From an uncultured Candidatus Saccharibacteria bacterium (GTDB lineage Bacteria > Patescibacteriota > Minisyncoccia > UBA6257 > 2-01-FULL-56-20): a DNA stretch of 64,000 bases. Every line of letters begins with the position of its first letter. Within the stretch, counting starts at the first letter, position 1. The position numbers and the translations under genes are program-made. This document shows, piece by piece, positions 6,821-42,580 of the stretch. The stretch spans positions 24,130 to 88,129 of the forward strand of contig CAZAFA010000002.1 in NCBI GenBank assembly GCA_964484655.1, written 5' to 3'. Below the pieces are notes generated by a model. The model was given only the letters and a program-made list of their open reading frames with translations, searched no databases and was not told where the DNA came from.

Positions 6821-7035
6821 GGGCAGCGGAAGACCTTCATCCTGCTCGTCGACCCGCGCAGGAGGACGACCTCGCTCGGCGCGACGCCCAGGTGCGCGGC
6901 GAGCATCTTGCGCGCGGCCTCGTTCGCCTTCCCCTTCTCCGGGCGTGCCGGCGTGGCGATCAGCACGATGCCGTTCTCCTCGCGGAGCGAGGCGGCCCGC
7001 GCGCCCGGCTTCACGCGCGCCTCGACGATCCTCAC
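6817..7035 (-). CDS. DUF167/YggU-family small protein
   Basis: 72 aa. MRIVEARVKPGARA...GKANEAARKMLAAHLGV...VVLLRGSTSRMKV fits the YggU pattern. Confidence 0.6.
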   Translation of the reverse strand: MRIVEARVKPGARAASLREENGIVLIATPARPEKGKANEAARKMLAAHLGVAPSEVVLLRGSTSRMKVFRCP

Positions 7036-8219
7036 AGCAGTATGTCGGCCTCGCGCGCGAGGCGCTCGAGGATCGCCGAGAGCTCCTCGCGCGAGTAGAA
7101 CGAGATCGTGATCTTGCCGGCGTCACCGTGCGCCTGGATGCGCACCGGCGCTCCGAGGTCCGAGGCGAGACGGTCCTGGAGCATCTGCAGCTCCGGGCTC
7201 AGCGGCTCGGCCTCGCGCGGGACGCGCGGAGCGATCCGCCGTCCCTTGCCCGCGGCGACGCGCTCCCGCAGCTCCCGGGTGGTCAGCTGGCGCTGCAGGA
7301 GGTCGCGGAAGAGGGACTGCTGCAGCGCCGGATCGGTGACGCCGAGGAGGAGGCGCCCGTGGCTCTCGCTGATGCGGCCGTCTTCGATCGCGGCCTGCAC
7401 GTCGCCCGGCAGGTCGAGGAGGCGCAACGTGTTCGCCACCACTTCCCTGCTCTTGCCGAGGCGCGTCGCCACCTCGCGCTGCGTCATGTTGAACTCGTCC
7501 TGGAGGCGGGCGTACGCGCGCGCCATCTCGATGGGATTGAGCTGCTCGCGCTGCAGGTTCTCGATGATCGCGAGCTCCAGGCTCTCGCGGTTCGCCGTGA
7601 CGGCGCGCACGATGGCCGGCACGCGCGGCAGGCCGACCAGCTTGCTCGCGCGCAGGCGCCGCTCGCCCGCGATGAGCTCGTAGTGGACCTGCGTGCCGGT
7701 CGGCGTCTCGGTCTCGATCTTCCGCACGACCAGCGGCTGGAGCACGCCGAACTCGCGGATGCTCGCGGCGAGGTCCGCGAGCGCGGCGTCGTCGAAGGTC
7801 TTGCGCGGCTGGTTGGGGTTCGGATGGATCCGCTCCACCTCGATCTGGAATACCGCCTCGTGCGGCAGGCGCGTGTCAGGCTCGCGGACGGGCGCCGGCG
7901 CCGGCTGTGGATACATCTGCTGGCGCGGCGGCTCCGGCTGCCGGACCGGTTCGGGCGCCGGCCGGTACGGCTGCGCCATGAAGGCGTCTCCCTGGCTCGG
8001 CGGCACGAGGGAGGCGTAGTCCGGAGCGGCAGGCTGCGCGGGAGCGTCGTCGTGGACGTGCAGCATGAGCGGCACGGGCGGGAGCGCTTCCTCGCGCGGC
8101 TGCGCCGGCAGCTCCGGATACGCGAAGCCGCCCGGTCCGTGAAGGCTGCGGTCGTCTCCCTGCGCCTGGGAGCCGTTCCCCTGCGGCGGAATGAGGGCCT
8201 CGAGGCCGCGTCCGAGCAT
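7032..8219 (-). CDS. parB: chromosome partitioning protein ParB with Pro-rich N-terminal extension
   Basis: MLGRGLEALIP start. ParB box motifs (LIAGERRLRA), an HTH (MTQREVATRLGKSREVVANTLRLL) and a C-terminal dimerisation region. Confidence 0.9.
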   Translation of the reverse strand: MLGRGLEALIPPQGNGSQAQGDDRSLHGPGGFAYPELPAQPREEALPPVPLMLHVHDDAPAQPAAPDYASLVPPSQGDAFMAQPYRPAPEPVRQPEPPRQQMYPQPAPAPVREPDTRLPHEAVFQIEVERIHPNPNQPRKTFDDAALADLAASIREFGVLQPLVVRKIETETPTGTQVHYELIAGERRLRASKLVGLPRVPAIVRAVTANRESLELAIIENLQREQLNPIEMARAYARLQDEFNMTQREVATRLGKSREVVANTLRLLDLPGDVQAAIEDGRISESHGRLLLGVTDPALQQSLFRDLLQRQLTTRELRERVAAGKGRRIAPRVPREAEPLSPELQMLQDRLASDLGAPVRIQAHGDAGKITISFYSREELSAILERLAREADILL

Positions 8220-8644: not shown

Positions 8645-8669
8645 CGAGGGGCTGCGGCCCCTCGTTTTT
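8645..8669. terminator. bidirectional terminator hairpin
   Basis: CGAGGGG-CTGC-GGCCCCTCG followed by TTTTTC. Confidence 0.6.
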
Positions 8670-9439
8670 CATATGCCGCGCTCCTCCCCGATGACCTCGC
8701 GCGCCAGGTCGCGGTACGCGCGCGCGCCGTCCGAATCCGGGCGATGCAGCAGCACGGGCTTGCCGAAGCTCGGCGCCTCCGCGAGCGCGACGCTCCGGGG
8801 GATCTCGGTGCGGAACACGCGGTGCGGGAAGTGCGCGCGCAGGTTCGCGGCGACCTCGCGCGAGAACCGCTCGCCGGCGTCGTGCATGGTCAGGAGCGCG
8901 CCGGCCACGGAAAGGTCGTGGCTGAGGTTCTTCCGGATCATGTCCACCGTCGCAAGCAGCTGCCCGAGCCCCTCGAGGCTGTAGTACTCGGCCTGCACGG
9001 GCACGATGATCTCGTCGGCGGCGACGAGCCCGTTGACGAACAGGAGATCCATCGAGGGCGGCAGGTCGATGACGATGTAGCTGTACTCGTGGCGGAGCGC
9101 GTTGAGCATCCGGCGCAGCGCGCGGTCGCGCTCGTGCATGCCGATGAGCTCGACGCGCAGGCCGGTCAGGTGCGGGGCGGCGGGGACGAAGTGCAGGTTC
9201 ATCAGCGCCGAAGGCCGCACGAGGCTCCGCGGATGCGCGAGGCCGAGCACGCCGTGGTACACGCTCTCCTGGAGAGAATGGGGCGTCGCGCCGAGCGCAG
9301 AGCTCGCGTTCCCCTGCGGATCGAAGTCGACAAGCAGCGTGCGTCGCCCGTGCGCGGCGAGGTACGCGGCGAGGTTCACCGCGGTCGTGGTCTTGCCGAC
9401 CCCGCCCTTCTGGTTGCATACCGCGATCACGCGCGCCAT
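8669..9439 (-). CDS. parA: ParA/Soj partitioning ATPase
   Basis: MARVIAVCNQKGGVGKTTT deviant Walker A. The track ORF extends to 9487, but the standard start is the MARVIAV ATG. Confidence 0.9.
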   Translation of the reverse strand: MARVIAVCNQKGGVGKTTTAVNLAAYLAAHGRRTLLVDFDPQGNASSALGATPHSLQESVYHGVLGLAHPRSLVRPSALMNLHFVPAAPHLTGLRVELIGMHERDRALRRMLNALRHEYSYIVIDLPPSMDLLFVNGLVAADEIIVPVQAEYYSLEGLGQLLATVDMIRKNLSHDLSVAGALLTMHDAGERFSREVAANLRAHFPHRVFRTEIPRSVALAEAPSFGKPVLLHRPDSDGARAYRDLAREVIGEERGI

Positions 9440-9575
9440 ATGGGCGAGTATAGCAGGCGTATCGGGCAGAGAATCGTGGCCTGCCATGCAGATTTGACCT
9501 TCCTAGCCGCCTTCGCGTCTAATGGCAGCAGTCTTTTCAGAAGGCGAGAAATACTTGATCAAGGAGGTTTGCAAG

Positions 9576-18436: not shown

Positions 18437-19129
18437 TCAGCGGCGGCCCCGCCAGGGCAGCACGGTCTGGGCCGCGAACGTGCTCGTCCCTACGTGCGCG
18501 CCGATGGCGCGGACGTAGGCGCCCGTCGTAACACCCTCGGCGTCGCCGGTGACCAGGACCATCCAGTCCCGGCCGTTGGCGTCGCGTAGCAGGAACGCAG
18601 TCGTCGTAGTCGCCTCGAGAACCTGCCCGCCGAGGAGTCCCTGCGCGGGATTGGACCAGAACGCCTCGCGCGAGAGCACGAAGCGGTCATAGGCAGGAAG
18701 CTCGCGGGCCAGCTCGTGGGTGCGCGTGCCCAGGCCTGCCGCGTAGAGCGCGCTGCCGATCGCGAGACTCATGAGCACGCTCCCGCCGAGCACCGTGACT
18801 GGTGCGAAGCGGTAGCCGCGGCGCGTGCGCGTGACCAGCTGGTAGGTAAGGAGTACGAGCATGAGGAGCGCGGCGAGCCACAGGTACGGGAACGACCGCA
18901 CCGTGGCGATGGTGTTGCGCTGGCTGAGCTCGACGGCGAGGTCCCAGTCGCGGTCGAGGAGCAGGAACTCGGACGTCGCCACGGTCATCGCGCCGAAGAA
19001 GACGGAGAGCGCCAGCAGGAGGCCCAGCAGGACGTTGCGCGCGACGAAGGTCCAGCGCGGGCGCGGCGCTATCTCGCGCTCCTGGATGGCGCCGACGACG
19101 CGGGCGGCGAAATCGTGTTCGTGGTTCAT
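18437..19129 (-). CDS. putative anti-sigma factor (membrane protein)
   Basis: Start overlaps the stop of the upstream ECF sigma gene (ATGA). Cytoplasmic N-terminus followed by TM helices. Confidence 0.5.
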   Translation of the reverse strand: MNHEHDFAARVVGAIQEREIAPRPRWTFVARNVLLGLLLALSVFFGAMTVATSEFLLLDRDWDLAVELSQRNTIATVRSFPYLWLAALLMLVLLTYQLVTRTRRGYRFAPVTVLGGSVLMSLAIGSALYAAGLGTRTHELARELPAYDRFVLSREAFWSNPAQGLLGGQVLEATTTTAFLLRDANGRDWMVLVTGDAEGVTTGAYVRAIGAHVGTSTFAAQTVLPWRGRR

Positions 19130-19716
19130 GGATTCTGGGTAAGGAGGTCGCGGAGCCGGGCCTTGGCGCGGGAGATGAGCGTCGCTACGGTGCCGGGCGG
19201 CTTGCGCAGGATGTCCGAGATCTCCTCGTACGTGCGCTCCTCGAGGAAGCGCAGGATGAGCACGTCCCGGTACTTGGGGTCGAGGCGGTCGATGGCCGCG
19301 CGGAGCGCCGCGGCATCCATGCGGGCTTCCGTCTCGGCCGCCGGGTCGGCCTCGGCGACGATGTTCTCGAACGCCGCGACCTCGTCCTCGTCGCGCGCGA
19401 CTTGCGGGACGCGGCTCACCTTCCGGAAGAACGTCATCGCCTCGTTATGCGTGATGCGGTAGATCCAGGAGGAGAACTTCAGGGAAGGATCGTAATCGTT
19501 GAGGTTGCGATACGCCTTGAGGAAGACCTCCTGGAGGATGTCATCGGCATCGCTCTGGCTCCTGCAGCCGAGGCGGAACAGGTAGCGGTTCAGCGGCGCC
19601 TGGTACCGGCGCACCAGAGGCGCGTACGCCGCGCTGTCCCTGAGCGCGGCCGCGACCAGCTCCTGATCGCTCGGCTCCTTAGTAGAGGATGTGGTCTCGG
19701 GCATGCGGGGAAGCAA
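19126..19716 (-). CDS. ECF (sigma-70 family) RNA polymerase sigma factor
   Basis: Region 2 (DILQEVFLKAYRNL...FSSWIYRITHNE) and region 4 (LEERTYEEISDILRKPPGTVATLISRAKARL). Confidence 0.85.
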   Translation of the reverse strand: MLPRMPETTSSTKEPSDQELVAAALRDSAAYAPLVRRYQAPLNRYLFRLGCRSQSDADDILQEVFLKAYRNLNDYDPSLKFSSWIYRITHNEAMTFFRKVSRVPQVARDEDEVAAFENIVAEADPAAETEARMDAAALRAAIDRLDPKYRDVLILRFLEERTYEEISDILRKPPGTVATLISRAKARLRDLLTQNP

Positions 19717-19801
19717 GGCGCCGAGGCGGCCTGAACCTTGATACGCCCCGGATGCCCCTATTCTTTCATATTAGGACGGGGCAGGAGCGTATACTTACCC
19801 G

Positions 19802-29720: not shown

Positions 29721-29787
29721 TGCTGATGAGTGTCTTGGTGAACGACTCGCTATATAAGACGCATCCTCCGCGAGCGCCTTACATCCG

Positions 29788-29861: not shown

Positions 29862-30143
29862 ATGTCCGATACCGAAACTGAAACGCAGCCGTTCAACCGG
29901 CGTCATCCCGAGCTCCGCGACGGAGAGCGCTGGCTCGGCAACTATCCGCTCTCCCAGGTCCCTTACCTCCCGCATAGCACCAAGCGCCGCGGGCAGGTCG
30001 CCTACGACCGCGAAGGCACGCCGCTCACCGAGTCCGTCGGGAGCAACATGAGCCGCTTCGTCCCGGTCTTCGTCAGCCTCGACGAGATCGTGAAGAAGCA
30101 ACGTGCGAGGCGCCGTCCCAGCGTCGCAGGAGGCGTGGTATGA
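29862..30143 (+). CDS. small conserved-motif protein, paralog A
   Basis: RBS GAAGGAGGAGGAG. Shares RHPE..ER.GN...P.L......V.YD..G.P...S..PVFV with the next ORF. Confidence 0.45.
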   Translation: MSDTETETQPFNRRHPELRDGERWLGNYPLSQVPYLPHSTKRRGQVAYDREGTPLTESVGSNMSRFVPVFVSLDEIVKKQRARRRPSVAGGVV

Positions 30144-30397
30144 CCATGACCCTGGAGCGTCATCCCGAGGAAGGGGCTGACGAGCGCTGCATCGGCAACT
30201 TCCTGCCGGACGAGCTGCCGCAGCTCGAGCAGAGGTACGGCGCCTTGCGCGTCGGCGAGGTCCCCTACGACCACGATGGCGCGCCGAAGCGGGACTACGG
30301 ATCGCTGCGACCGGTGTTCGTGAACCGGTTCAAGCCGCCGCCGGTCGAGACGCGCGTCGCGACGATCAGGCAGAGGCCCTGGTGGAGCCGGAAATGA
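30140..30397 (+). CDS. small conserved-motif protein, paralog B
   Basis: ATGA overlap with paralog A. Same motif order. Confidence 0.45.
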   Translation: MTMTLERHPEEGADERCIGNFLPDELPQLEQRYGALRVGEVPYDHDGAPKRDYGSLRPVFVNRFKPPPVETRVATIRQRPWWSRK

Positions 30398-30399
30398 GG

Positions 30400-30427
30400 A
30401 AAGCGGGACCTGCGGGTCCCGCTTCTG
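30400..30427 (+). terminator. rho-independent terminator
   Basis: AAAGCGGGACC-TGC-GGGTCCCGCTTCT. One loop base differs from the hairpin at 32857. Confidence 0.6.
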
Positions 30428-30470
30428 CATCTGCAGTGAAATATAAAAAGTAACCGGTACAATATCCTGC

Positions 30471-31058
30471 ATGGATTCCTCCCGCATGCGCTCCCTCGCG
30501 CTCATCGTCCACTGGCTGCCGCTCGCGGCGGCGATCGCGCTCATGGGCGGCATGGCGATCGCCATGGCCCAGCAGGCGCTCCGCGCGCAGCTCAACGACC
30601 CGCAGATACAGATGGTCGCCGACGCGCAGGCGCTCCTCGAGAAGGGCGTCGCGCCCCAGCAGGTCGCGACCCCGACGACGCCCGTCCCGCTGGACGCGGC
30701 GCACAGCTTCGCCCCCTTCCTCGCCGTCTACGACGCCCAGGGAACGCCGCTCGCCTGGAGCGGCACCATCAACGGGCAGGCGCCGAAGCCGCCCACGGAC
30801 GTGTTCGAGCGGGCCAAGGAGGCGGGCCGCAACCGCGTGACCTGGGAACCGGAGGAGAAGGTCCGCATCGCGCTGGTAGCGCGCCCGGTGAACAACGGGG
30901 AGCGCTACGTGGCCGCCGGCCGGAACATGGCCGAGGTGGAGGACCGGATCTGGCTGATGACCCGCATCGGGCTCTCCTCCGTGCTGCTGATCCTCCTGAT
31001 CACGCTCGTCCTCGAGGGCTTCGCGGACTGGTGGCGGCGGAAGGCCGTTGCCGCTTAA
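30471..31058 (+). CDS. hypothetical membrane protein
   Basis: N-terminal and C-terminal TM helices flank a soluble domain. Confidence 0.4.
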   Translation: MDSSRMRSLALIVHWLPLAAAIALMGGMAIAMAQQALRAQLNDPQIQMVADAQALLEKGVAPQQVATPTTPVPLDAAHSFAPFLAVYDAQGTPLAWSGTINGQAPKPPTDVFERAKEAGRNRVTWEPEEKVRIALVARPVNNGERYVAAGRNMAEVEDRIWLMTRIGLSSVLLILLITLVLEGFADWWRRKAVAA

Positions 31059-31097: not shown

Positions 31098-31125
31098 TTG
31101 ACTATTTCTCAGAAACCCTTATAAG
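31098..31125 (+). promoter_or_regulatory. candidate promoter TTGACT-N16-TATAAG
   Basis: Lies in the AT-rich leader ahead of the sigma-factor gene. Confidence 0.3.
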
Positions 31126-31172
31126 TTTGCTTACGCTTCTTGATAAAAACGTAATAAGGAGAACGAAGGCCC

Positions 31173-31943
31173 ATGCTGGACAGTCTGAACGGCGCCTCCG
31201 GCCTGCTGGAGGGAACTGAGACGACGGATCCGCCGAAACACGACTATGCACTCGCGAAACGCGCGGGCATGGGCGACGAATCGGCGTTCACGACGCTCTA
31301 TACGCGATACCGTTCGCGCACGCTGAACGTGGTTTCACGGATCGTGGAGCCCGCGGACAGCGAGGACGTGAACCAGGAGGTATGGATCCAGGTATTCAGG
31401 AAGATCGGCTCCTTCAAGGGAGATTCGGCCTTCACGACCTGGCTGCACCGCCTGTCGGTCAACACGGCGCTCATGCACCTGCGGAAACGCACGGTGAAGC
31501 TTGAGCATGTCACCGACGACGAGGAATTCCCCGTCGTCGTGGTCCCGGGAACGGAACGTCCGTCCCGGATGAGGATCGTGGATAAGATCGCGATCGACGA
31601 GGCCTGGGAGTATCTCCCCGCGGGATACAAGCAGGTCCTCTACTACCATGACGTCCTCGGCTACGAGCACGAGGAGGTGGCGGTCATCATGGGATGCTCG
31701 GTAGGGACCTCTAAGTCCCAGCTGCACAAGGCACGCCTCAAGATGGGACGGATACTGCGCCGGAAGAAGCTGAACGCGCACGATTCGAACAACGTCATCG
31801 AGGCCCGATGGAACGCCAGGCTCGGCATAGAGCTGCCGGCGATCAGCATCGGGGAATGGAGGCGCGGCATCGAGGATGCGGCGGAGGAAGAGGCTGAGAC
31901 GGTCGAGGACGACTTCGACATAGGGGAGGAATGGAGCTTATGA
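31173..31943 (+). CDS. sigma-70/ECF-type sigma factor with acidic C-terminal extension
   Basis: Region 2 (DVNQEVWIQVFRKIGSF...FTTWLHRLSVNTA) and region 4 (YHDVLGYEHEEVAVIMGCSVGTSKSQLHKARLKM), plus ~60 extra residues. Confidence 0.75.
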   Translation: MLDSLNGASGLLEGTETTDPPKHDYALAKRAGMGDESAFTTLYTRYRSRTLNVVSRIVEPADSEDVNQEVWIQVFRKIGSFKGDSAFTTWLHRLSVNTALMHLRKRTVKLEHVTDDEEFPVVVVPGTERPSRMRIVDKIAIDEAWEYLPAGYKQVLYYHDVLGYEHEEVAVIMGCSVGTSKSQLHKARLKMGRILRRKKLNAHDSNNVIEARWNARLGIELPAISIGEWRRGIEDAAEEEAETVEDDFDIGEEWSL

Positions 31944-32857
31944 GAGATGCTCTCGAAAAAACGGGAACGTCGCTCCCGGTCGCGACGAACGGCACGCAGC
32001 AGGAGGAGAAGGTCATCTGGGTCAGGCGCGACCGCCTGGCTCCCGACCCCCGCCAGCCGCGCAACTGGTTCGACGAAGCCAAGCTCGAGGAACTCGCCAA
32101 GAGCATCGGAGCCGTCGGACAGCGGGTGGCCATCATCGTGGTCGCCCACCCCGAGGAGCCTGATCGCTACCTCATTGTCGACGGCGAACGCCGCTGGCGC
32201 GCCTGCGAGATCGCGGGCGTCATGATGATGAAGGCGGTCGTCTCCCAGGAGACGGACGAGCGCGAGCTCTTCAAGCAGTCCGCGATCGCGAACTTCTCGC
32301 GGGAGGGTCACACCACCCTCGAGATCATGCACGCGATCGCCCGCATCAAGCAGGACTTCCCGGATCTCAAGAATCACGAGATCGCGGCGATGTTCGGCAA
32401 GTCCCTCGGCTGGGTGCAGAACCACCTTGCGCTGCTGCGGCTCCCGCGGGAGGTCCAGGACCTGATGCATCCCTCGCGACCGAAGGAACAGCGGCTGGTG
32501 TTTTCCGTTGCCCTGCAGCTCGTCCCGCTCTCCGAGCAGGATCAGCTGCGATTCGCCCGCGAGTACTGCTCCGGCAGGAGGAGCGCGAAAAGCACCGCGG
32601 TGGACATCACGCGCCACCGGCTGACCAGCGGCGGCGTCACGGTGAAGAAGCCGAAGAAGTCGCATGCGCGGCAGAAGATCACCAACTTCACCAAGCGCAT
32701 CCAGGAGGACACGGAGCTCATCGCCCTGATGGATCCGGAGACCTTCCAAGTCGCCTTCGCGGGACGGAACAGGCAGGAGGTCAAGGAAGCCCTCCGCAAC
32801 CTCGAGGATGCGGAGCGGAACATCGCCAAGATCAAACGCTTGCTCGGGAAGTCATAA
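31931..32857 (+). CDS. ParB/Srx-like N-terminal domain protein with HTH (orphan ParB-like)
   Basis: LIVDGERRWRACEIAG is a ParB box II-like motif. Overlaps the sigma gene by 13 nt. Confidence 0.75.
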   Translation: MELMRDALEKTGTSLPVATNGTQQEEKVIWVRRDRLAPDPRQPRNWFDEAKLEELAKSIGAVGQRVAIIVVAHPEEPDRYLIVDGERRWRACEIAGVMMMKAVVSQETDERELFKQSAIANFSREGHTTLEIMHAIARIKQDFPDLKNHEIAAMFGKSLGWVQNHLALLRLPREVQDLMHPSRPKEQRLVFSVALQLVPLSEQDQLRFAREYCSGRRSAKSTAVDITRHRLTSGGVTVKKPKKSHARQKITNFTKRIQEDTELIALMDPETFQVAFAGRNRQEVKEALRNLEDAERNIAKIKRLLGKS

Positions 32858-32884
32858 AAAGCGGGACCTTCGGGTCCCGCTTTT
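32857..32884. terminator. terminator hairpin
   Basis: AAAAGCGGGACC-TTC-GGGTCCCGCTTTT. Confidence 0.7.
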
Positions 32885-32939
32885 GCATGCCAGTCGCTAG
32901 CTGCTCCGCTTCCCGTGCCTTCGCTTGAGACGTAGCTGG

Positions 32940-35285
32940 AGATGGCATGAGATTTCCTACTTTAACCCTTACAACTCCCTAATCAAACTAATCAAGTCCT
33001 AATACAGCTCTAAACCATCTAATTGCACCAATGCCATGATGATTAATAATTTCTAGCGTTGTGGAATCGGCAACGCGGTTATGGACACGATTATTTCTGT
33101 ATTCAATAAGTTCCACAAAACTCTTTTCAAGCCTGGGCTTATGCCTAAATTTTGGCTTGAACGCATCCCAATTCTGAGCTTTTAAGATAATGTCTTTGTA
33201 GTGGTTGAGGGACAAAAAGCGAACTAAGGCTTCCCCTTGCTGAAACTCTTCCTGAGTTTTAAATGGATACCTTTCCAATTCAGAATCCACCATACCGGCA
33301 ACTTGCTCCTTGATATACTGAGGAATCACTCCGTCACGATTCCAGTAATTAGCACCATACTTTGTCAGCAGCTCAGTATGAATGAGGTCCCTAAGTGCGC
33401 TTTCGATTTCTTCAATGGACTGAATGCCGATCTCTTCAACTTCATTCGAATCCTCTTCTCCCGTTTCATCATTAGAAAGAATCTCTGGATTAAAATCAGG
33501 CTTTACCTTATTGATCTCTAGACAAAGCATTGCAGCAACCTTTACATAACCAGCTTCACTCGATGCACTTTTCATCTCTTTAAGTTGTTCATCATCAAGG
33601 CTAGTCAGATGCGCAGTAAGAGGCTTTGTATATTCGGTAAGCTTAAGTCGATAAATTTTCAAATCCTGCACGATGTTTCGATCACTCCGACGAAAATCTA
33701 AAAGTATATGTTTGAAAACTAATAAGAGGACCGCTATACCGAAATTAGAACGTACGAAGCCTTTTTCGCCATTATTCCAATCCTTTAAACATTCATCCTT
33801 AATTGCTTGGAAAAATATATCCAGCCTCTCAACTGCGAAATCAACGGTATCTTCTTCTGTCTCATGGAAAAGCTCGCCAGGCCTCCTTCCGGCTTTTAGA
33901 AAATTTCCCTTCTTTAAACGATTGCAAAGAGTATAAAGACTGATATTTGACTGCGTGTCTTTCTCATTAACACTCGGAACATAAATATGATTTTCCAATG
34001 CGCCATTCCTCTTTGCGTTGAGCCCTTTACCGACACGGCTGATTAAGCAAAGAAGCCGATTTTTATCTTCTTTAGAGCCATAGTAGATATCGCTATACAA
34101 ATCCCATAGCAAATTTGCATCGACCTTCTTCTGGTGCTCATTGATATCGATGAATAACTTACCCTGACGATCTGCAGGAAGTCCCTCGTAGGCAAAAACA
34201 GGAATCAATGCAGTCGTTCCCTCTGGGATGCCTGCATAACTCAATAAGCGATGCTGACCATCAATAATCCACGCAGCTTTATAAGAACGAGGGAAAGTAA
34301 GATCGCCATATTCAATTCCTTCAAGAGTAGAAATTACTTTAAAACGAGGCGGCTTACTGAAATTGACGATAACATTATTAGCAAAGCTGCCTCTATGATT
34401 TTGAATATATTCCCTGATATCGGCGACACGTCCTTTATTCACCATCCTTTGATATGGATTTTCAGAACCATTTAGTAGATTGCCCTGATTGAGCTTTCTA
34501 TGATGAACATAACTGATCTTAATCAGATCCTTCGGATAGCAAACAAATGAATAGCCTGTTAGTCCATTTGGGTCAGTTACTCTTATAGCGGGGACATGTG
34601 GAGGATAATCTGGCACCTCCTCATCAAAGAAAGTCTCAGCGCAAACTTGATAAAAAGCATCTTTCCCAAGGCGGCCGAATAAATCTTCAAAGTATGAAAT
34701 ATAAAACGAGTTCCAAATAGAAACTCTCTTTTCAGAAGCTAAAACTAAATCAGACTCTGAAGGGTCAATGTTATTGAGAGCCAAGATGTATTTAACCGAT
34801 GTACTCTCTCCAAAAAGTTTCTGGAAAACAGGAGTTAGTTTTCGCGAATAATCATTAATTTCCCGGATATCCTGAGCAACTGTTCTCCGGGATCGCTCCT
34901 CAGCATGCTTACATTCGATGACAAATATAGTCTTCCCAAAGCGGGCAATTACATCGATTTGCTTACTCTCGCCATTGTTATCAAGCAAGACCCTAGATGC
35001 TTGACTATCCCGATTTAAGTTGTGGGCACCGAGACTCCACATCAAATTCCAAATCCTATCCTCAAAAACTTCTGACGCGGCTTTATCGGAGTTTTTAATT
35101 TTTCTCCTTTCTATTTCTGTATTAAAAAAAGGATCGGACTCATCAACACGTAATAAAATATTTTGAATCCGCTCGAGTGGAGTTTCCGAAACCGAATCCT
35201 TCTTGGGCATAGAAATATTGGATCACGTAAACACCTATCTAACAAGACGGCGAAATATCAATCCTTACCCAGAATTGGGCGTTTG
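32940..35285. other. low-GC (~37%) genomic island abutting tRNA-Ser(GCT)
   Basis: Abrupt compositional shift from ~70% GC with AT-rich codon usage. Carries a single gene. No integrase or direct repeat found. Confidence 0.55.
32988..35210 (-). CDS. multidomain defence-like protein: PD-(D/E)xK-like N-terminus, DGQHR domain (DndB/ParB-Srx-like), HEPN-like C-terminus
   Basis: Motifs read directly: IDVIARFGKTIFVIECKH (D...ExK), WIIDGQHRLLSYAG (DGQHR), ELIEYRNNRVHNRV (Rx4H HEPN-like). 740 aa. Confidence 0.8.
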   Translation of the reverse strand: MPKKDSVSETPLERIQNILLRVDESDPFFNTEIERRKIKNSDKAASEVFEDRIWNLMWSLGAHNLNRDSQASRVLLDNNGESKQIDVIARFGKTIFVIECKHAEERSRRTVAQDIREINDYSRKLTPVFQKLFGESTSVKYILALNNIDPSESDLVLASEKRVSIWNSFYISYFEDLFGRLGKDAFYQVCAETFFDEEVPDYPPHVPAIRVTDPNGLTGYSFVCYPKDLIKISYVHHRKLNQGNLLNGSENPYQRMVNKGRVADIREYIQNHRGSFANNVIVNFSKPPRFKVISTLEGIEYGDLTFPRSYKAAWIIDGQHRLLSYAGIPEGTTALIPVFAYEGLPADRQGKLFIDINEHQKKVDANLLWDLYSDIYYGSKEDKNRLLCLISRVGKGLNAKRNGALENHIYVPSVNEKDTQSNISLYTLCNRLKKGNFLKAGRRPGELFHETEEDTVDFAVERLDIFFQAIKDECLKDWNNGEKGFVRSNFGIAVLLLVFKHILLDFRRSDRNIVQDLKIYRLKLTEYTKPLTAHLTSLDDEQLKEMKSASSEAGYVKVAAMLCLEINKVKPDFNPEILSNDETGEEDSNEVEEIGIQSIEEIESALRDLIHTELLTKYGANYWNRDGVIPQYIKEQVAGMVDSELERYPFKTQEEFQQGEALVRFLSLNHYKDIILKAQNWDAFKPKFRHKPRLEKSFVELIEYRNNRVHNRVADSTTLEIINHHGIGAIRWFRAVLGLD

Positions 35286-35372
35286 CGGAGAGGCAGGGAT
35301 TCGAACCCTGGGAGGGGTTCCCCCCTCAACATCTTAGCAGGATGCTCCATTCGACCGCTCTGGCACCTCTCC
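35286..35372 (-). tRNA. tRNA-Ser (anticodon GCT)
   Basis: Reverse complement GGAGAGG...GCATC-CTGCTAA-GATGT..., long variable arm GAGGGGGGAACCCCTCCC, T arm CAGGG-TTCGAAT-CCCTG. Confidence 0.8.
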
Positions 35373-41680: not shown

Positions 41681-42580
41681 ATGGCATTCATGGCTACCCC
41701 CCGGCTCAAGGAACGCATTAAGGAGCTCAAGGCGCGCTACGAGCAGCTGCGCGCTGGCAAGGCGTCCCTGTTGCGCATGCTCGACGAGAGCGAGATTCCC
41801 GAGGCGGTATATAACTCGAACGCCATCGAGAACTCGACGCTGACGCTCCAGGAGACCGCGGAGATCCTCGACGACCGGAATATCGGACGCAAGGTCGACG
41901 TGCGCGAGATCTACGAGACGCGCAATCTCGCGAAGGTCATCGAGCGCCTGCACGCGCAGGACGCGTTGCCCCGGCTCGAAGAGCAGGGAATCCTCGACCT
42001 CCATCACATGCTCCTGGCAGGTATCGACGACGGCATCGCCGGCAGGTTCCGCGGTCCGGGCGAGTACGTGCGCGTGGGGACGCACGTCGCCCCTCCTCCC
42101 GAGCAAGTGCCGGAGCTCGTCCGGAACATGATCCTCGATTACGAGAGCGACCTGGACGGGTACTTCCTCGAGAAGATCGCTGCGTTCCATCTCGACTTCG
42201 AGACGATCCATCCGTTCAACGACGGGAACGGCCGCATCGGCCGCGTGCTGGTCAACTATCAGCTGCAGCAGCTCGGCCTGCCGAGCGTCATCGTCCGGAA
42301 CCGTACCAAGCAGGCGTACTACGACACCTTTGCCGCATACAAGAAGAACGGGAACGTCCGCGGGCTCGAGGAGATCCTGGCGCTCGGTCTCATGGAATCG
42401 CTCAACCGGCGCATCGCGTACCTGCGCGGCGCCCGGCTCACGAAACTCAGCGAGTTCGCCGCGGCGCGGAGGCTGGCGCCCGCGAAGATAACGACGCTCG
42501 CGCGCCGCCAGCATATCCCCGCGTTCCGCGAGAACGGCGTCTGGCATATCCCTGAGGACTACGAGTACGCCAGGGACTAG
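41681..42580 (+). CDS. Fic-family protein, class II (N-terminal autoinhibitory SxxxEN motif)
   Basis: HPFNDGNGRIGR Fic motif. SNAIEN matches [ST]xxxE[GN]. Preceded by a ~150-bp AT-rich segment. Confidence 0.85.
   Translation: MAFMATPRLKERIKELKARYEQLRAGKASLLRMLDESEIPEAVYNSNAIENSTLTLQETAEILDDRNIGRKVDVREIYETRNLAKVIERLHAQDALPRLEEQGILDLHHMLLAGIDDGIAGRFRGPGEYVRVGTHVAPPPEQVPELVRNMILDYESDLDGYFLEKIAAFHLDFETIHPFNDGNGRIGRVLVNYQLQQLGLPSVIVRNRTKQAYYDTFAAYKKNGNVRGLEEILALGLMESLNRRIAYLRGARLTKLSEFAAARRLAPAKITTLARRQHIPAFRENGVWHIPEDYEYARD

Follow-up and report, generated by a model that had tools for sequence, protein, structure and literature searches.

A 64,000-nt stretch of contig CAZAFA010000002.1 from an uncultured Candidatus Saccharibacteria bacterium (hereafter the window, to which coordinates refer unless another locus is named) was found to carry a self-contained, conserved operon, in which the gene of an extracytoplasmic function (ECF)-type sigma factor with an extra C-terminal segment is directly followed by the gene of an orphan ParB-like protein. 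The system is small, its genes having about 250 and 305 codons, and its hard-wiring shows in the conservation of the operon, in a second, independent clade represented on viral contigs, and in one apparent fusion protein. We consider it likely that the sigma factor and the ParB-like protein are functionally coupled; the whole reading up to and including a direct contact of the two proteins through the sigma tail is put forward tentatively, as we are slightly readier to doubt than to affirm it. No sigma–ParB pairing was found in the literature searched, where co-occurrences of the terms concerned unrelated matters, and the main text of the 2021 ECF reclassification has no occurrence of ParB (PMC7826278); a sigma/ParB regulatory partnership so far undescribed is suggested. 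A preliminary description of this DNA had offered two interpretations of the pair, a regulatory or partner module of the adjoining DGQHR island, or an independent sigma/KorB-like regulator cassette, and it was partly supported: the island interpretation was wrong, and the cassette interpretation was right and undersold, the link between the two genes being tighter than that description could know.

The sigma factor carries a conserved C-terminal extension

The product of the first gene matches Pfam Sigma70_r2 (residues 42–107, 46.3 bits) and Sigma70_r4_2 (residues 140–191, 51 bits), scores 69 bits against the NCBIfam model sigma70-ECF TIGR02937 (cut-off 42.9), and has AlgU/RpoE-type ECF sigmas as its nearest solved structures; its domain content is that of an ECF (group IV) sigma-70 factor. 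It reaches no NCBIfam equivalog, all of which score far under their cut-offs (e.g. RpoE, 104.5 versus 236 bits). Region 4 is followed by an extra tail of about 60 residues (residues ∼197–256) with a net charge of −11 over the final 22 residues, and so the regions 2 and 4.2 and the ∼60 extra acidic residues that had been described from the sequence were all borne out. The layout of this extension is constant in eight of eight orthologues, namely a basic stretch and then a variable linker, after which come the motif LGIELPA, an amphipathic helix that usually contains a Trp, and an acidic tail that includes aromatic residues and whose net charge, taken over 22 residues, is −8 to −11. In the AlphaFold2 (AF2) model of the sigma factor (mfedee11debd0), the extension is of low confidence and predicted to be flexible, except for a helix at residues 226–244, a pattern typical of a segment that may fold upon binding.

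The closest sigmas lacking the extension are about 222 aa long, ∼53% identical in alignment and 55–63% identical over the aligned core, and no ParB-like gene lies downstream of them. As a side observation, the sigma core (31173–31760) shows this 55–63% identity to a very large set of ∼222-aa ECF sigmas, of which the few with a named source are Acidobacteriota (e.g. Pyrinomonadaceae), an unusually high identity across phyla if the host is a Patescibacterium. Neither Pfam nor NCBIfam detected an anti-sigma family in the sigma operon, whose sole downstream gene is the ParB-like one.

The ParB-like protein is a putative CTP-binding switch

The second gene product matches ParB_N (56.8 bits), HTH_ParB (28.8 bits, cut-off 22.6) and TIGR00180 (115 bits), in agreement with the preliminary description of a 308-aa open reading frame (ORF) carrying a GERRWRA motif and a helix-turn-helix (HTH). 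GERRWRA at residues 85–91 and Q42-P43-R44 are invariant among seven relatives, and the Asn and Arg of box III are invariantly kept as well. The Glu of the box III motif ENxxR is replaced by Ala or Val in the ParB-like proteins (IANFSRE versus IENLQRE), as read from alignments to Noc and to the genome's own ParB (ENLQRE). In the Bacillus subtilis ParB, the E111Q substitution abolished CTP hydrolysis and retained CTP binding and gate closure (PMC8494293). Because the ENxxR Glu is replaced while the CTP-binding residues are invariant, we infer that the ParB-like protein would be a CTP-binding switch that hydrolyses CTP slowly or not at all.

The AF2 model of the ParB-like protein (m3207ce40110f; pLDDT 77) has Noc, ParB and KorB as its top Foldseek matches and superposes on them across the first ∼215 residues, i.e. 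the N-terminal and DNA-binding domains, and a profile built from the protein and its relatives likewise has Noc, Spo0J/ParB and KorB as the nearest solved structures. The ParB_C domain (PF23552) gives no match in this protein, whereas it does in the genome's true ParB; the C-terminal region is instead modelled as three long helices, which might supply dimerisation in place of ParB_C. Neither in the window nor at the orthologous loci does a ParA gene adjoin the ParB-like gene, and the N-terminus of the protein showed no ParA-binding motif, though no specific search for one was made. A genuine parA and parB pair is located elsewhere in the window, as had been noted, and this parB encodes ParB_C. 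Thus, the protein belongs to the ParB superfamily and is not a canonical ParB, Noc or KorB.

In a rough tree of ParB-like sequences, the protein falls into an orphan family apart from the canonical ParBs, and full-length matches in an exhaustive profile search amounted to at least 588 clusters at 50% identity. The best PHROG match is phrog_4715 (residues 19–295), and deposited phage genomes contain no close relative (≤36% identity, partial coverage). Among the long family members, P0384 has three XRE-type HTH domains fused ahead of its ParB-like part, and the N-terminal extensions of ten further ones contain no Pfam domain.

The two genes form an operon with its own promoter, leader and terminator

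The sigma stop codon TGA (31941–31943) overlaps the ATG at 31940 to give a 4-nt ATGA overlap, and a GGAGG at 31925–31929 lies 10 nt before this ATG and only 1 nt before the ATG at 31931. The later start is used by the public gene call P0001 (305 aa) and by the orthologues in loci L003 and L213. Given the GGAGG spacing, the public call and the orthologue starts, the overlap is probably 4 nt; the 13 nt described previously hold when counted from the first ATG (31931) and probably do not reflect the real overlap. From this gene anatomy, co-transcription and translational coupling of the two genes would be expected, with which the 4-nt overlap still fits. A Shine-Dalgarno AAGGAG precedes the sigma gene in six of the seven orthologous loci, the remaining one (L004) having a shifted AGGAG.

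The promoter-like element ascribed to the pair was recovered as TTGACT-16-TATAAG, and in alignments of seven orthologous loci its TTGAC core does not vary and each locus has a −10-like hexamer. A generic promoter scan passed it over because the second hexamer ends in G. The promoter is not of ECF type, having no AAC-like −35 or CGT-like −10, and because it is instead of housekeeping type, the sigma gene is not autoregulated as those of ECF sigmas usually are. Thus, the window encodes an ECF sigma without the usual anti-sigma and without the usual autoregulation.

Between the promoter and the sigma gene, an AT-rich, partly palindromic leader element (also written TTACGCTTCTTGATAAA) recurs in seven loci with eight invariant columns. 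It is the sole exact match in the window (0.03 expected by chance), other matches carrying two mismatches, and a similar element lies ahead of an extra sigma gene downstream of the ParB-like gene in L211. Neither the leader nor the rest of the operon's surroundings matched a known RNA family in Rfam. The element is a candidate operator or 5′-untranslated region (5′-UTR) element, and also the only candidate for a ParB-like loading site.

The strong terminator of the preliminary description was confirmed: a hairpin with a T-run follows the ParB-like stop in six of six loci inspected (the window, L003, L004, L005, L007 and L008), and we read it as a terminator because its position and T-run persist while the stem sequences differ. 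In the window this hairpin belongs to a 31-nt element (AAAGCGGGACC-N4-GGTCCCGCTT..TGCAT) present in two copies with 94% identity, one after an 85-aa ORF, orf85 (30400–30430), and one after the ParB-like gene (32858–32888); variants occur after other genes in L003 (2123 and 5703) and L007 (1179), and upstream of the pilin gene in L004. An insertion scar or a parS-like site was considered for the repeat and rejected, since it is a terminator-type hairpin that follows different genes in close relatives and gives way to other hairpins in distant ones; the copies look like a lineage-specific family of terminators, absent from the more distant orthologues.

The pair is conserved in synteny and recurs in a second clade

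Extended-sigma orthologues were sought among 5.8 billion protein clusters, and the counts given here cover those with a readable context. The sigma-then-ParB-like pair was found in eight distinct loci, i.e. the window, L003, L004, L007, L008, L211, L213 and L214 (grouped with L215), and every extended-sigma orthologue with a readable context has the ParB-like gene directly downstream, 0–22 nt away or overlapping. The seven other loci apparently derive from related high-GC Patescibacteria, with L008 being a Candidatus Paceibacterota metagenome-assembled genome, and the identities of their ParB-like proteins to that of the window reach 80% (L003), 62% (L007), 53% (L004) and 49% (L008). The contig of L007 measures 2 kb, so that the pair is visible on it and the flanks are not, whereas those of L211/L212 measure at least 357 kb. 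Recurrent flanking genes encode a MacB-type ABC transporter, a Gp49/HTH_3 pair, DUF6941, a pilin-like protein, DUF5666 and a PQ-loop protein, and the block is embedded among ordinary chromosomal genes (MacB transporter, LemA, TPM), its synteny extending down to 49% ParB-like identity.

At locus L005, where the ParB-like protein is 40% identical, the preceding gene has lost any recognisable sigma-2 and is not scored as a sigma factor any more; its product aligns to region 4 and the GIxLP tail motif only (hhalign probability 85%). A dedicated partnership is favoured because the tail stays with the ParB-like gene, as this L005 partner and the unpaired extension-less sigmas illustrate. A second, distant ParB-like subclade (L171, L220 and L131) is also preceded by ECF sigmas with C-terminal extensions, each having its own and all ending in a Trp-containing helix with W-x-x-L-x-A-x-G-A, followed by acidic residues. 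In L171, the sigma gene overlaps the ParB-like gene and lies right after terminase and portal/MuF genes, with nucleotide-metabolism genes on the downstream side (a class of ribonucleotide reductase and a dCTP deaminase). In addition, the metagenomic sequence P0418 contains Sigma70_r2, Sigma70_r4_2, ParB_N and HTH_ParB in a single 475-aa chain, which could be either a Rosetta-stone fusion or a frameshift artefact.

These observations bear on a first alternative, namely that the two proteins are co-expressed and physically independent regulators, the sigma factor having its own regulon, the ParB-like protein acting as a KorB/Noc/VirB-style regulator or a nucleoid protein, and the shared operon merely co-ordinating their expression. 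Orphan ParBs without partners are common and widespread in surveys (PMC12704722), most sampled relatives of the ParB-like protein have no sigma neighbour, and the protein is itself equipped with a complete HTH DNA-binding domain, all of which would suit such independence. It leaves unexplained, however, why the sigma extension is conserved only where a ParB-like gene follows, why the L005 partner has kept just the tail and region 4, and why the arrangement recurs in a second clade and as a fusion; we therefore regard it as unlikely, while taking it seriously.

A proposed mechanism for the sigma/ParB-like partnership

For the dedicated partnership, the following mechanism is proposed. The housekeeping-type promoter would be read to transcribe the operon, and the ATGA overlap would give coupled amounts of both proteins. 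The ParB-like protein would then bind CTP and form a closed clamp on DNA in the manner of ParB, Noc, KorB and BisD, with CTP hydrolysis being probably poor, the ENxxR Glu being Ala. Onto this protein the sigma extension, with its flexible linker, hydrophobic motif and acidic/aromatic tail, would dock, and RNA polymerase carrying this sigma would in consequence be tethered to, or controlled by, the clamp-marked DNA. The tail-docking model is favoured because the sigma factor has a layout like that of T4 gp55 and a constant clamp-type companion, and activation or recruitment is favoured over sequestration; net activation, taken by itself, seems fairly doubtful. Its fullest form, in which a ParB-type CTP-gated clamp serves as a mobile DNA-loaded co-activator of its own sigma with the sigma tail plugged in, we think rather improbable as a complete account.

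Sequestration would make the ParB-like protein an anti-sigma factor, holding the sigma inactive until a signal such as the CTP level or DNA loading arrives. A gene directly downstream of, and coupled to, that of an ECF sigma occupies the classical anti-sigma place, the operon encodes no protein with a recognisable anti-sigma domain, and with a housekeeping-type promoter the control would have to be post-translational. Yet the protein has the full ParB DNA-binding architecture and no anti-sigma domain, the covalent fusion P0418 is hard to square with reversible sequestration, and the phage versions stand among structural and replication genes, where an activator is more usual. An anti-sigma role is accordingly judged distinctly unlikely.

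Several results weigh against the tethering mechanism proposed above. The search for parS-like inverted repeats suggested in the preliminary description gave no match to a canonical parS above chance within 3 mismatches, and the palindromes common to the loci were terminators or coding coincidences only; no parS-like loading site was found. Most sampled members of the orphan family have no sigma gene alongside, and the tails of the two clades resemble each other over a short, low-complexity stretch. P0418 is one sequence on one 3.5-kb contig and may stem from a frameshift or an assembly artefact. Finally, the conserved promoter-like element upstream of the DUF5666 gene (see below) has a counterpart before a second ECF sigma gene in the window, L008 and L213, and does not single out a target of this sigma.

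Two palindromes deserve separate mention. The shared palindrome GGGACCTCTAAGTCCC was rejected as a site, as it encodes the invariant GTSKS of sigma-4. In L004, a perfect 8-3-8 palindrome (TACTACGTCACACGTAGTA, positions 2073–2091 of that locus) lies between the ParB-like terminator and an extra sigma gene, and no counterpart of it was seen in the window.

ParB-type CTP switches that regulate transcription have recently been shown in a few mobile elements, i.e. KorB, BisD and VirB, whose clamps work with or against the host's ordinary transcription machinery. If the proposed mechanism is true, promoter choice would be coupled in a new way to a DNA-loaded, nucleotide-gated mark, and an ECF sigma would be under a new kind of control that dispenses with an anti-sigma factor. 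The module would then be common to candidate-phylum bacteria and phages, with the covalent sigma–ParB fusion as its extreme form.

The operon is native and independent of the DGQHR gene

The DGQHR gene is convergent with the operon and its end lies 130 nt from the ParB-like stop, exactly as had been described; it occupies a 2.3-kb segment of ∼40% GC (about 32945–35275) between the operon terminator and a tRNA-Ser(GCT) gene. Proximity alone, together with the description of both proteins as ParB/Srx-related, had led to the idea that the pair is a regulatory or partner module of a DGQHR (DndB/DpdB-like) defence island. The co-occurrence check proposed along with that idea gave the opposite result: the DGQHR gene is absent from seven of seven other pair-bearing loci (the L007 contig being too short for flanks), the pair and its flanks are kept in relatives without it, and neither of the two DGQHR homologue contexts (P0246 and P0249, 42% identical and the closest readable) includes a sigma or ParB neighbour, these homologues sitting among toxin-antitoxin, methyltransferase or transporter genes. 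Moreover, PADLOC defence models gave no match to the sigma or the ParB-like protein.

The base composition led to the same conclusion. GC at third codon positions (GC3) is 0.82 for the sigma gene and 0.88 for the ParB-like gene, within the range of host genes (0.81–0.96) and unlike the 0.36 of the DGQHR gene, and in the orthologous loci the GC3 of the pair follows the composition of each host. An overall GC of ∼60%, intermediate between host and island, had been noted for the pair; the value itself stood (61–64%), whereas the foreign origin it hinted at did not, since with a host-like GC3 the intermediate GC reflects the amino-acid composition. On synteny, reciprocal contexts, GC3 and PADLOC, the island partnership was rejected and appears hardly credible, and we have very little doubt that the cassette is native, has been inherited vertically and has no connection with the DGQHR gene. 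Its host is a high-GC bacterium, probably one of the Patescibacteria (Paceibacterota). That the genes converge is accidental, the result of a single-gene insertion at the tRNA. For annotation, the pair belongs to neither a defence island nor a partition system, and the DGQHR gene is an unrelated single-gene insertion.

A native cassette also has to be set against the view that the ParB-like protein is a leftover or second segregation or maintenance protein of an integrated mobile element or prophage, with the sigma factor as the transcription factor of that element. The wider family has phage members (L006, L168–L171 and L220), the match to phrog_4715 spans nearly the whole protein, and toxin-antitoxin genes are found nearby. 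Against this stand the host-like GC3, the position of the block between ordinary chromosomal genes with synteny across genomes at 49% ParB-like identity, the lack of ParA, integrase or repeats flanking the block, and the absence of ParB_C and of any ParA-binding motif seen (none having been specifically sought); such an origin is quite improbable.

For the DGQHR segment itself, no integrase or flanking repeats were found around it, and no att-type repeats of ≥7 nt join the tRNA-Ser gene to the far end of the low-GC segment. The DGQHR protein shows an N-terminal NERD/Hjc-like hint, a DpdB/DndB-like core and a C-terminal match to PADLOC PDC-M34B, and its full-length homologues (∼750 aa) occur in archaea (Thermoplasmatota, Nanoarchaeota, Woesearchaeota), Roizmanbacteria, Bacteroidetes and Rhodococcus, the closest being 42% identical. 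The tRNA-Ser gene is unlisted in the whole-window Rfam pass at the gathering threshold, which is a filter effect and not a sign of a degraded gene.

Candidate targets and other features of the window

Upstream of the DUF5666 gene, whose product is a predicted secreted protein and which accompanies the pair in seven of nine loci, an element TGTAAG-N15/16-CGTyT is conserved in six loci and has no second match of this kind in the window; a conserved AGTCGCTCACCAAG stretch comes after it, with no obvious ribosome-binding site. Bacillus ECF promoters include, e.g., that of sigma-X, TGTAAC-N17-CGAC. By comparison with these, the DUF5666 element looks like an ECF-type promoter and could mark a target gene of an ECF sigma. 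It may serve either sigma, since a similar element precedes the gene of the second, classical ECF sigma of the window. The arms of the element are partly self-complementary, but the alternative reading as an RNA hairpin is weakly supported.

Upstream of the operon, three consecutive ORFs (29862–31058; 93, 85 and 195 aa) have a common YDxxG(T/A)P motif and no Pfam or PHROG match; orf93 and orf85 show a weak mutual protein match (tblastn E = 4e-5), and the 195-aa ORF, which L003 lacks, comes with a separate promoter-like site and terminator. Farther downstream, a Fic/DOC family protein is encoded at 41681–42580 in a stretch of lower GC (55.7% for 41–42 kb versus ∼67% around), which may be another small insertion. 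The coordinates of the features are collected in Table 1.

Table 1. Location of the sigma/ParB-like operon, its parts and other features discussed (window positions, or contig positions for the second-clade pairs)
Feature	Position	Strand	Remarks
Housekeeping-type promoter	−35 TTGACT 31098–31103; −10 TATAAG 31120–31125	+	16-nt spacer
AT-rich leader element TTACGnTTnTTnAnAAA	31131–31147	+	about +1 to +20; partly palindromic
Shine-Dalgarno AAGGAG of sigma gene	31156–31161	+	
ECF-type sigma factor gene	31173–31943	+	256 aa; Pfam and NCBIfam matches
sigma-2	∼31296–31493	+	within sigma gene
sigma-4	∼31590–31745	+	within sigma gene
Sigma C-terminal extension	31761–31940	+	variable linker, LGIELPA, amphipathic Trp-containing helix, acidic/aromatic tail
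Orphan ParB-like gene	31940–32857 or 31931–32857	+	conserved start, 305 aa, or 308 aa
ParB_N	∼32021–32293	+	in ParB-like gene
GERRWRA	32183–32203	+	in ParB-like gene
HTH domain	∼32318–32593	+	in ParB-like gene
Three-helix C-terminal domain	∼32657–32851	+	in ParB-like gene
Intrinsic terminator hairpin AAAGCGGGACC-TTCG-GGTCCCGCTTTT and T-run	32858–32885	+	closes operon
DGQHR gene	32988–35210	−	740 aa; matches DndB, DGQHR and DpdB families
tRNA-Ser(GCT)	35285–35372		ARAGORN; local search 50.6 bits
True parB	7032–8219	−	ParB_N, HTH_ParB, ParB_C
True parA	8669–9487	−	
Second, classical ECF sigma	19126–19716		in the window
TGTAAG-type element	19776–19798	−	ahead of second ECF sigma
ECF-type promoter-like element TGTAAG-N15/16-CGTyT	29757–29783	−	upstream of DUF5666 gene
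Second-clade pair, L171	5213–6834		IMG/VR viral contig
Second-clade pair, L220	3205–4933		IMG/VR viral contig
Second-clade pair, L131	4413–6438		metagenome contig

Comparison with known systems

Noc is the closest solved relative of the ParB-like protein both by sequence (E = 1.9e-27) and by fold (Foldseek E = 2e-13), and both proteins occur in genomes that also encode a genuine ParAB pair. Noc carries an N-terminal membrane-targeting helix. It differs in its C-terminal domain and in having no sigma partner, and the ParB-like protein scores only 92 bits against the Noc equivalog cut-off of 315 bits.

In the KorB–KorA system of RK2, KorA latches the KorB clamp at promoters (PMC11790492). The likeness consists in a ParB-fold CTPase-type domain with an HTH, in transcription control, and in a small docking partner from the same operon, and the KorB structure 8qa9 matches the ParB-like model with a Foldseek E of 5e-10. 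Unlike in RK2, the partner here is a sigma factor and not an operator-binding repressor, IncC/ParA is lacking, the box III Glu is missing, the KorB Pfam domain stays below its cut-off (17.4 versus 22.3 bits), and the context is chromosomal, in an uncultured lineage.

BisD activates promoters of ICEclc together with BisC (PMC12409273), and thus offers a precedent for a ParB-like clamp, an orphan ParB without ParA, that activates over long distances with a co-encoded factor. It differs in that BisD has an activator domain of its own and BisC is FlhC-like, whereas the ParB-like protein described here carries no additional domain and is paired with an ECF sigma; nor did a bisS-like site come to light.

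Among the C-terminally extended ECF sigmas, the extension of ECF41 is SnoaL-like and that of ECF42 a TPR. Passages of two papers describe the ECF41 extension as a fused regulatory domain and that of ECF56 as a SnoaL_2 domain, and ECF41 and ECF42 resemble the sigma factor described here in having sigma-2, sigma-4 and an extra segment without a classical anti-sigma (PMC3426412, PMC8999054). The extension described here, in contrast, is about 60 residues long, largely disordered and acidic, and always comes with a ParB-like gene.

In the late transcription of bacteriophage T4, the sigma-like gp55 (with gp33) is tied to the sliding clamp gp45, the flexible linker of gp55 ending in a C-terminal epitope that is hydrophobic and acidic (PMC2988020). 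The sigma factor described here has the corresponding layout to gp55, i.e. a linker, LGIELPA with a helix, and an acidic/aromatic tail, by analogy and not by homology. The proposed clamp would be a ParB-type CTP-gated dimer instead of a PCNA/beta-type ring, and the sequences are unrelated. If the proposed mechanism is true, the sliding-clamp-activated transcription known from gp45 with gp55 would have been rebuilt here from unrelated parts.

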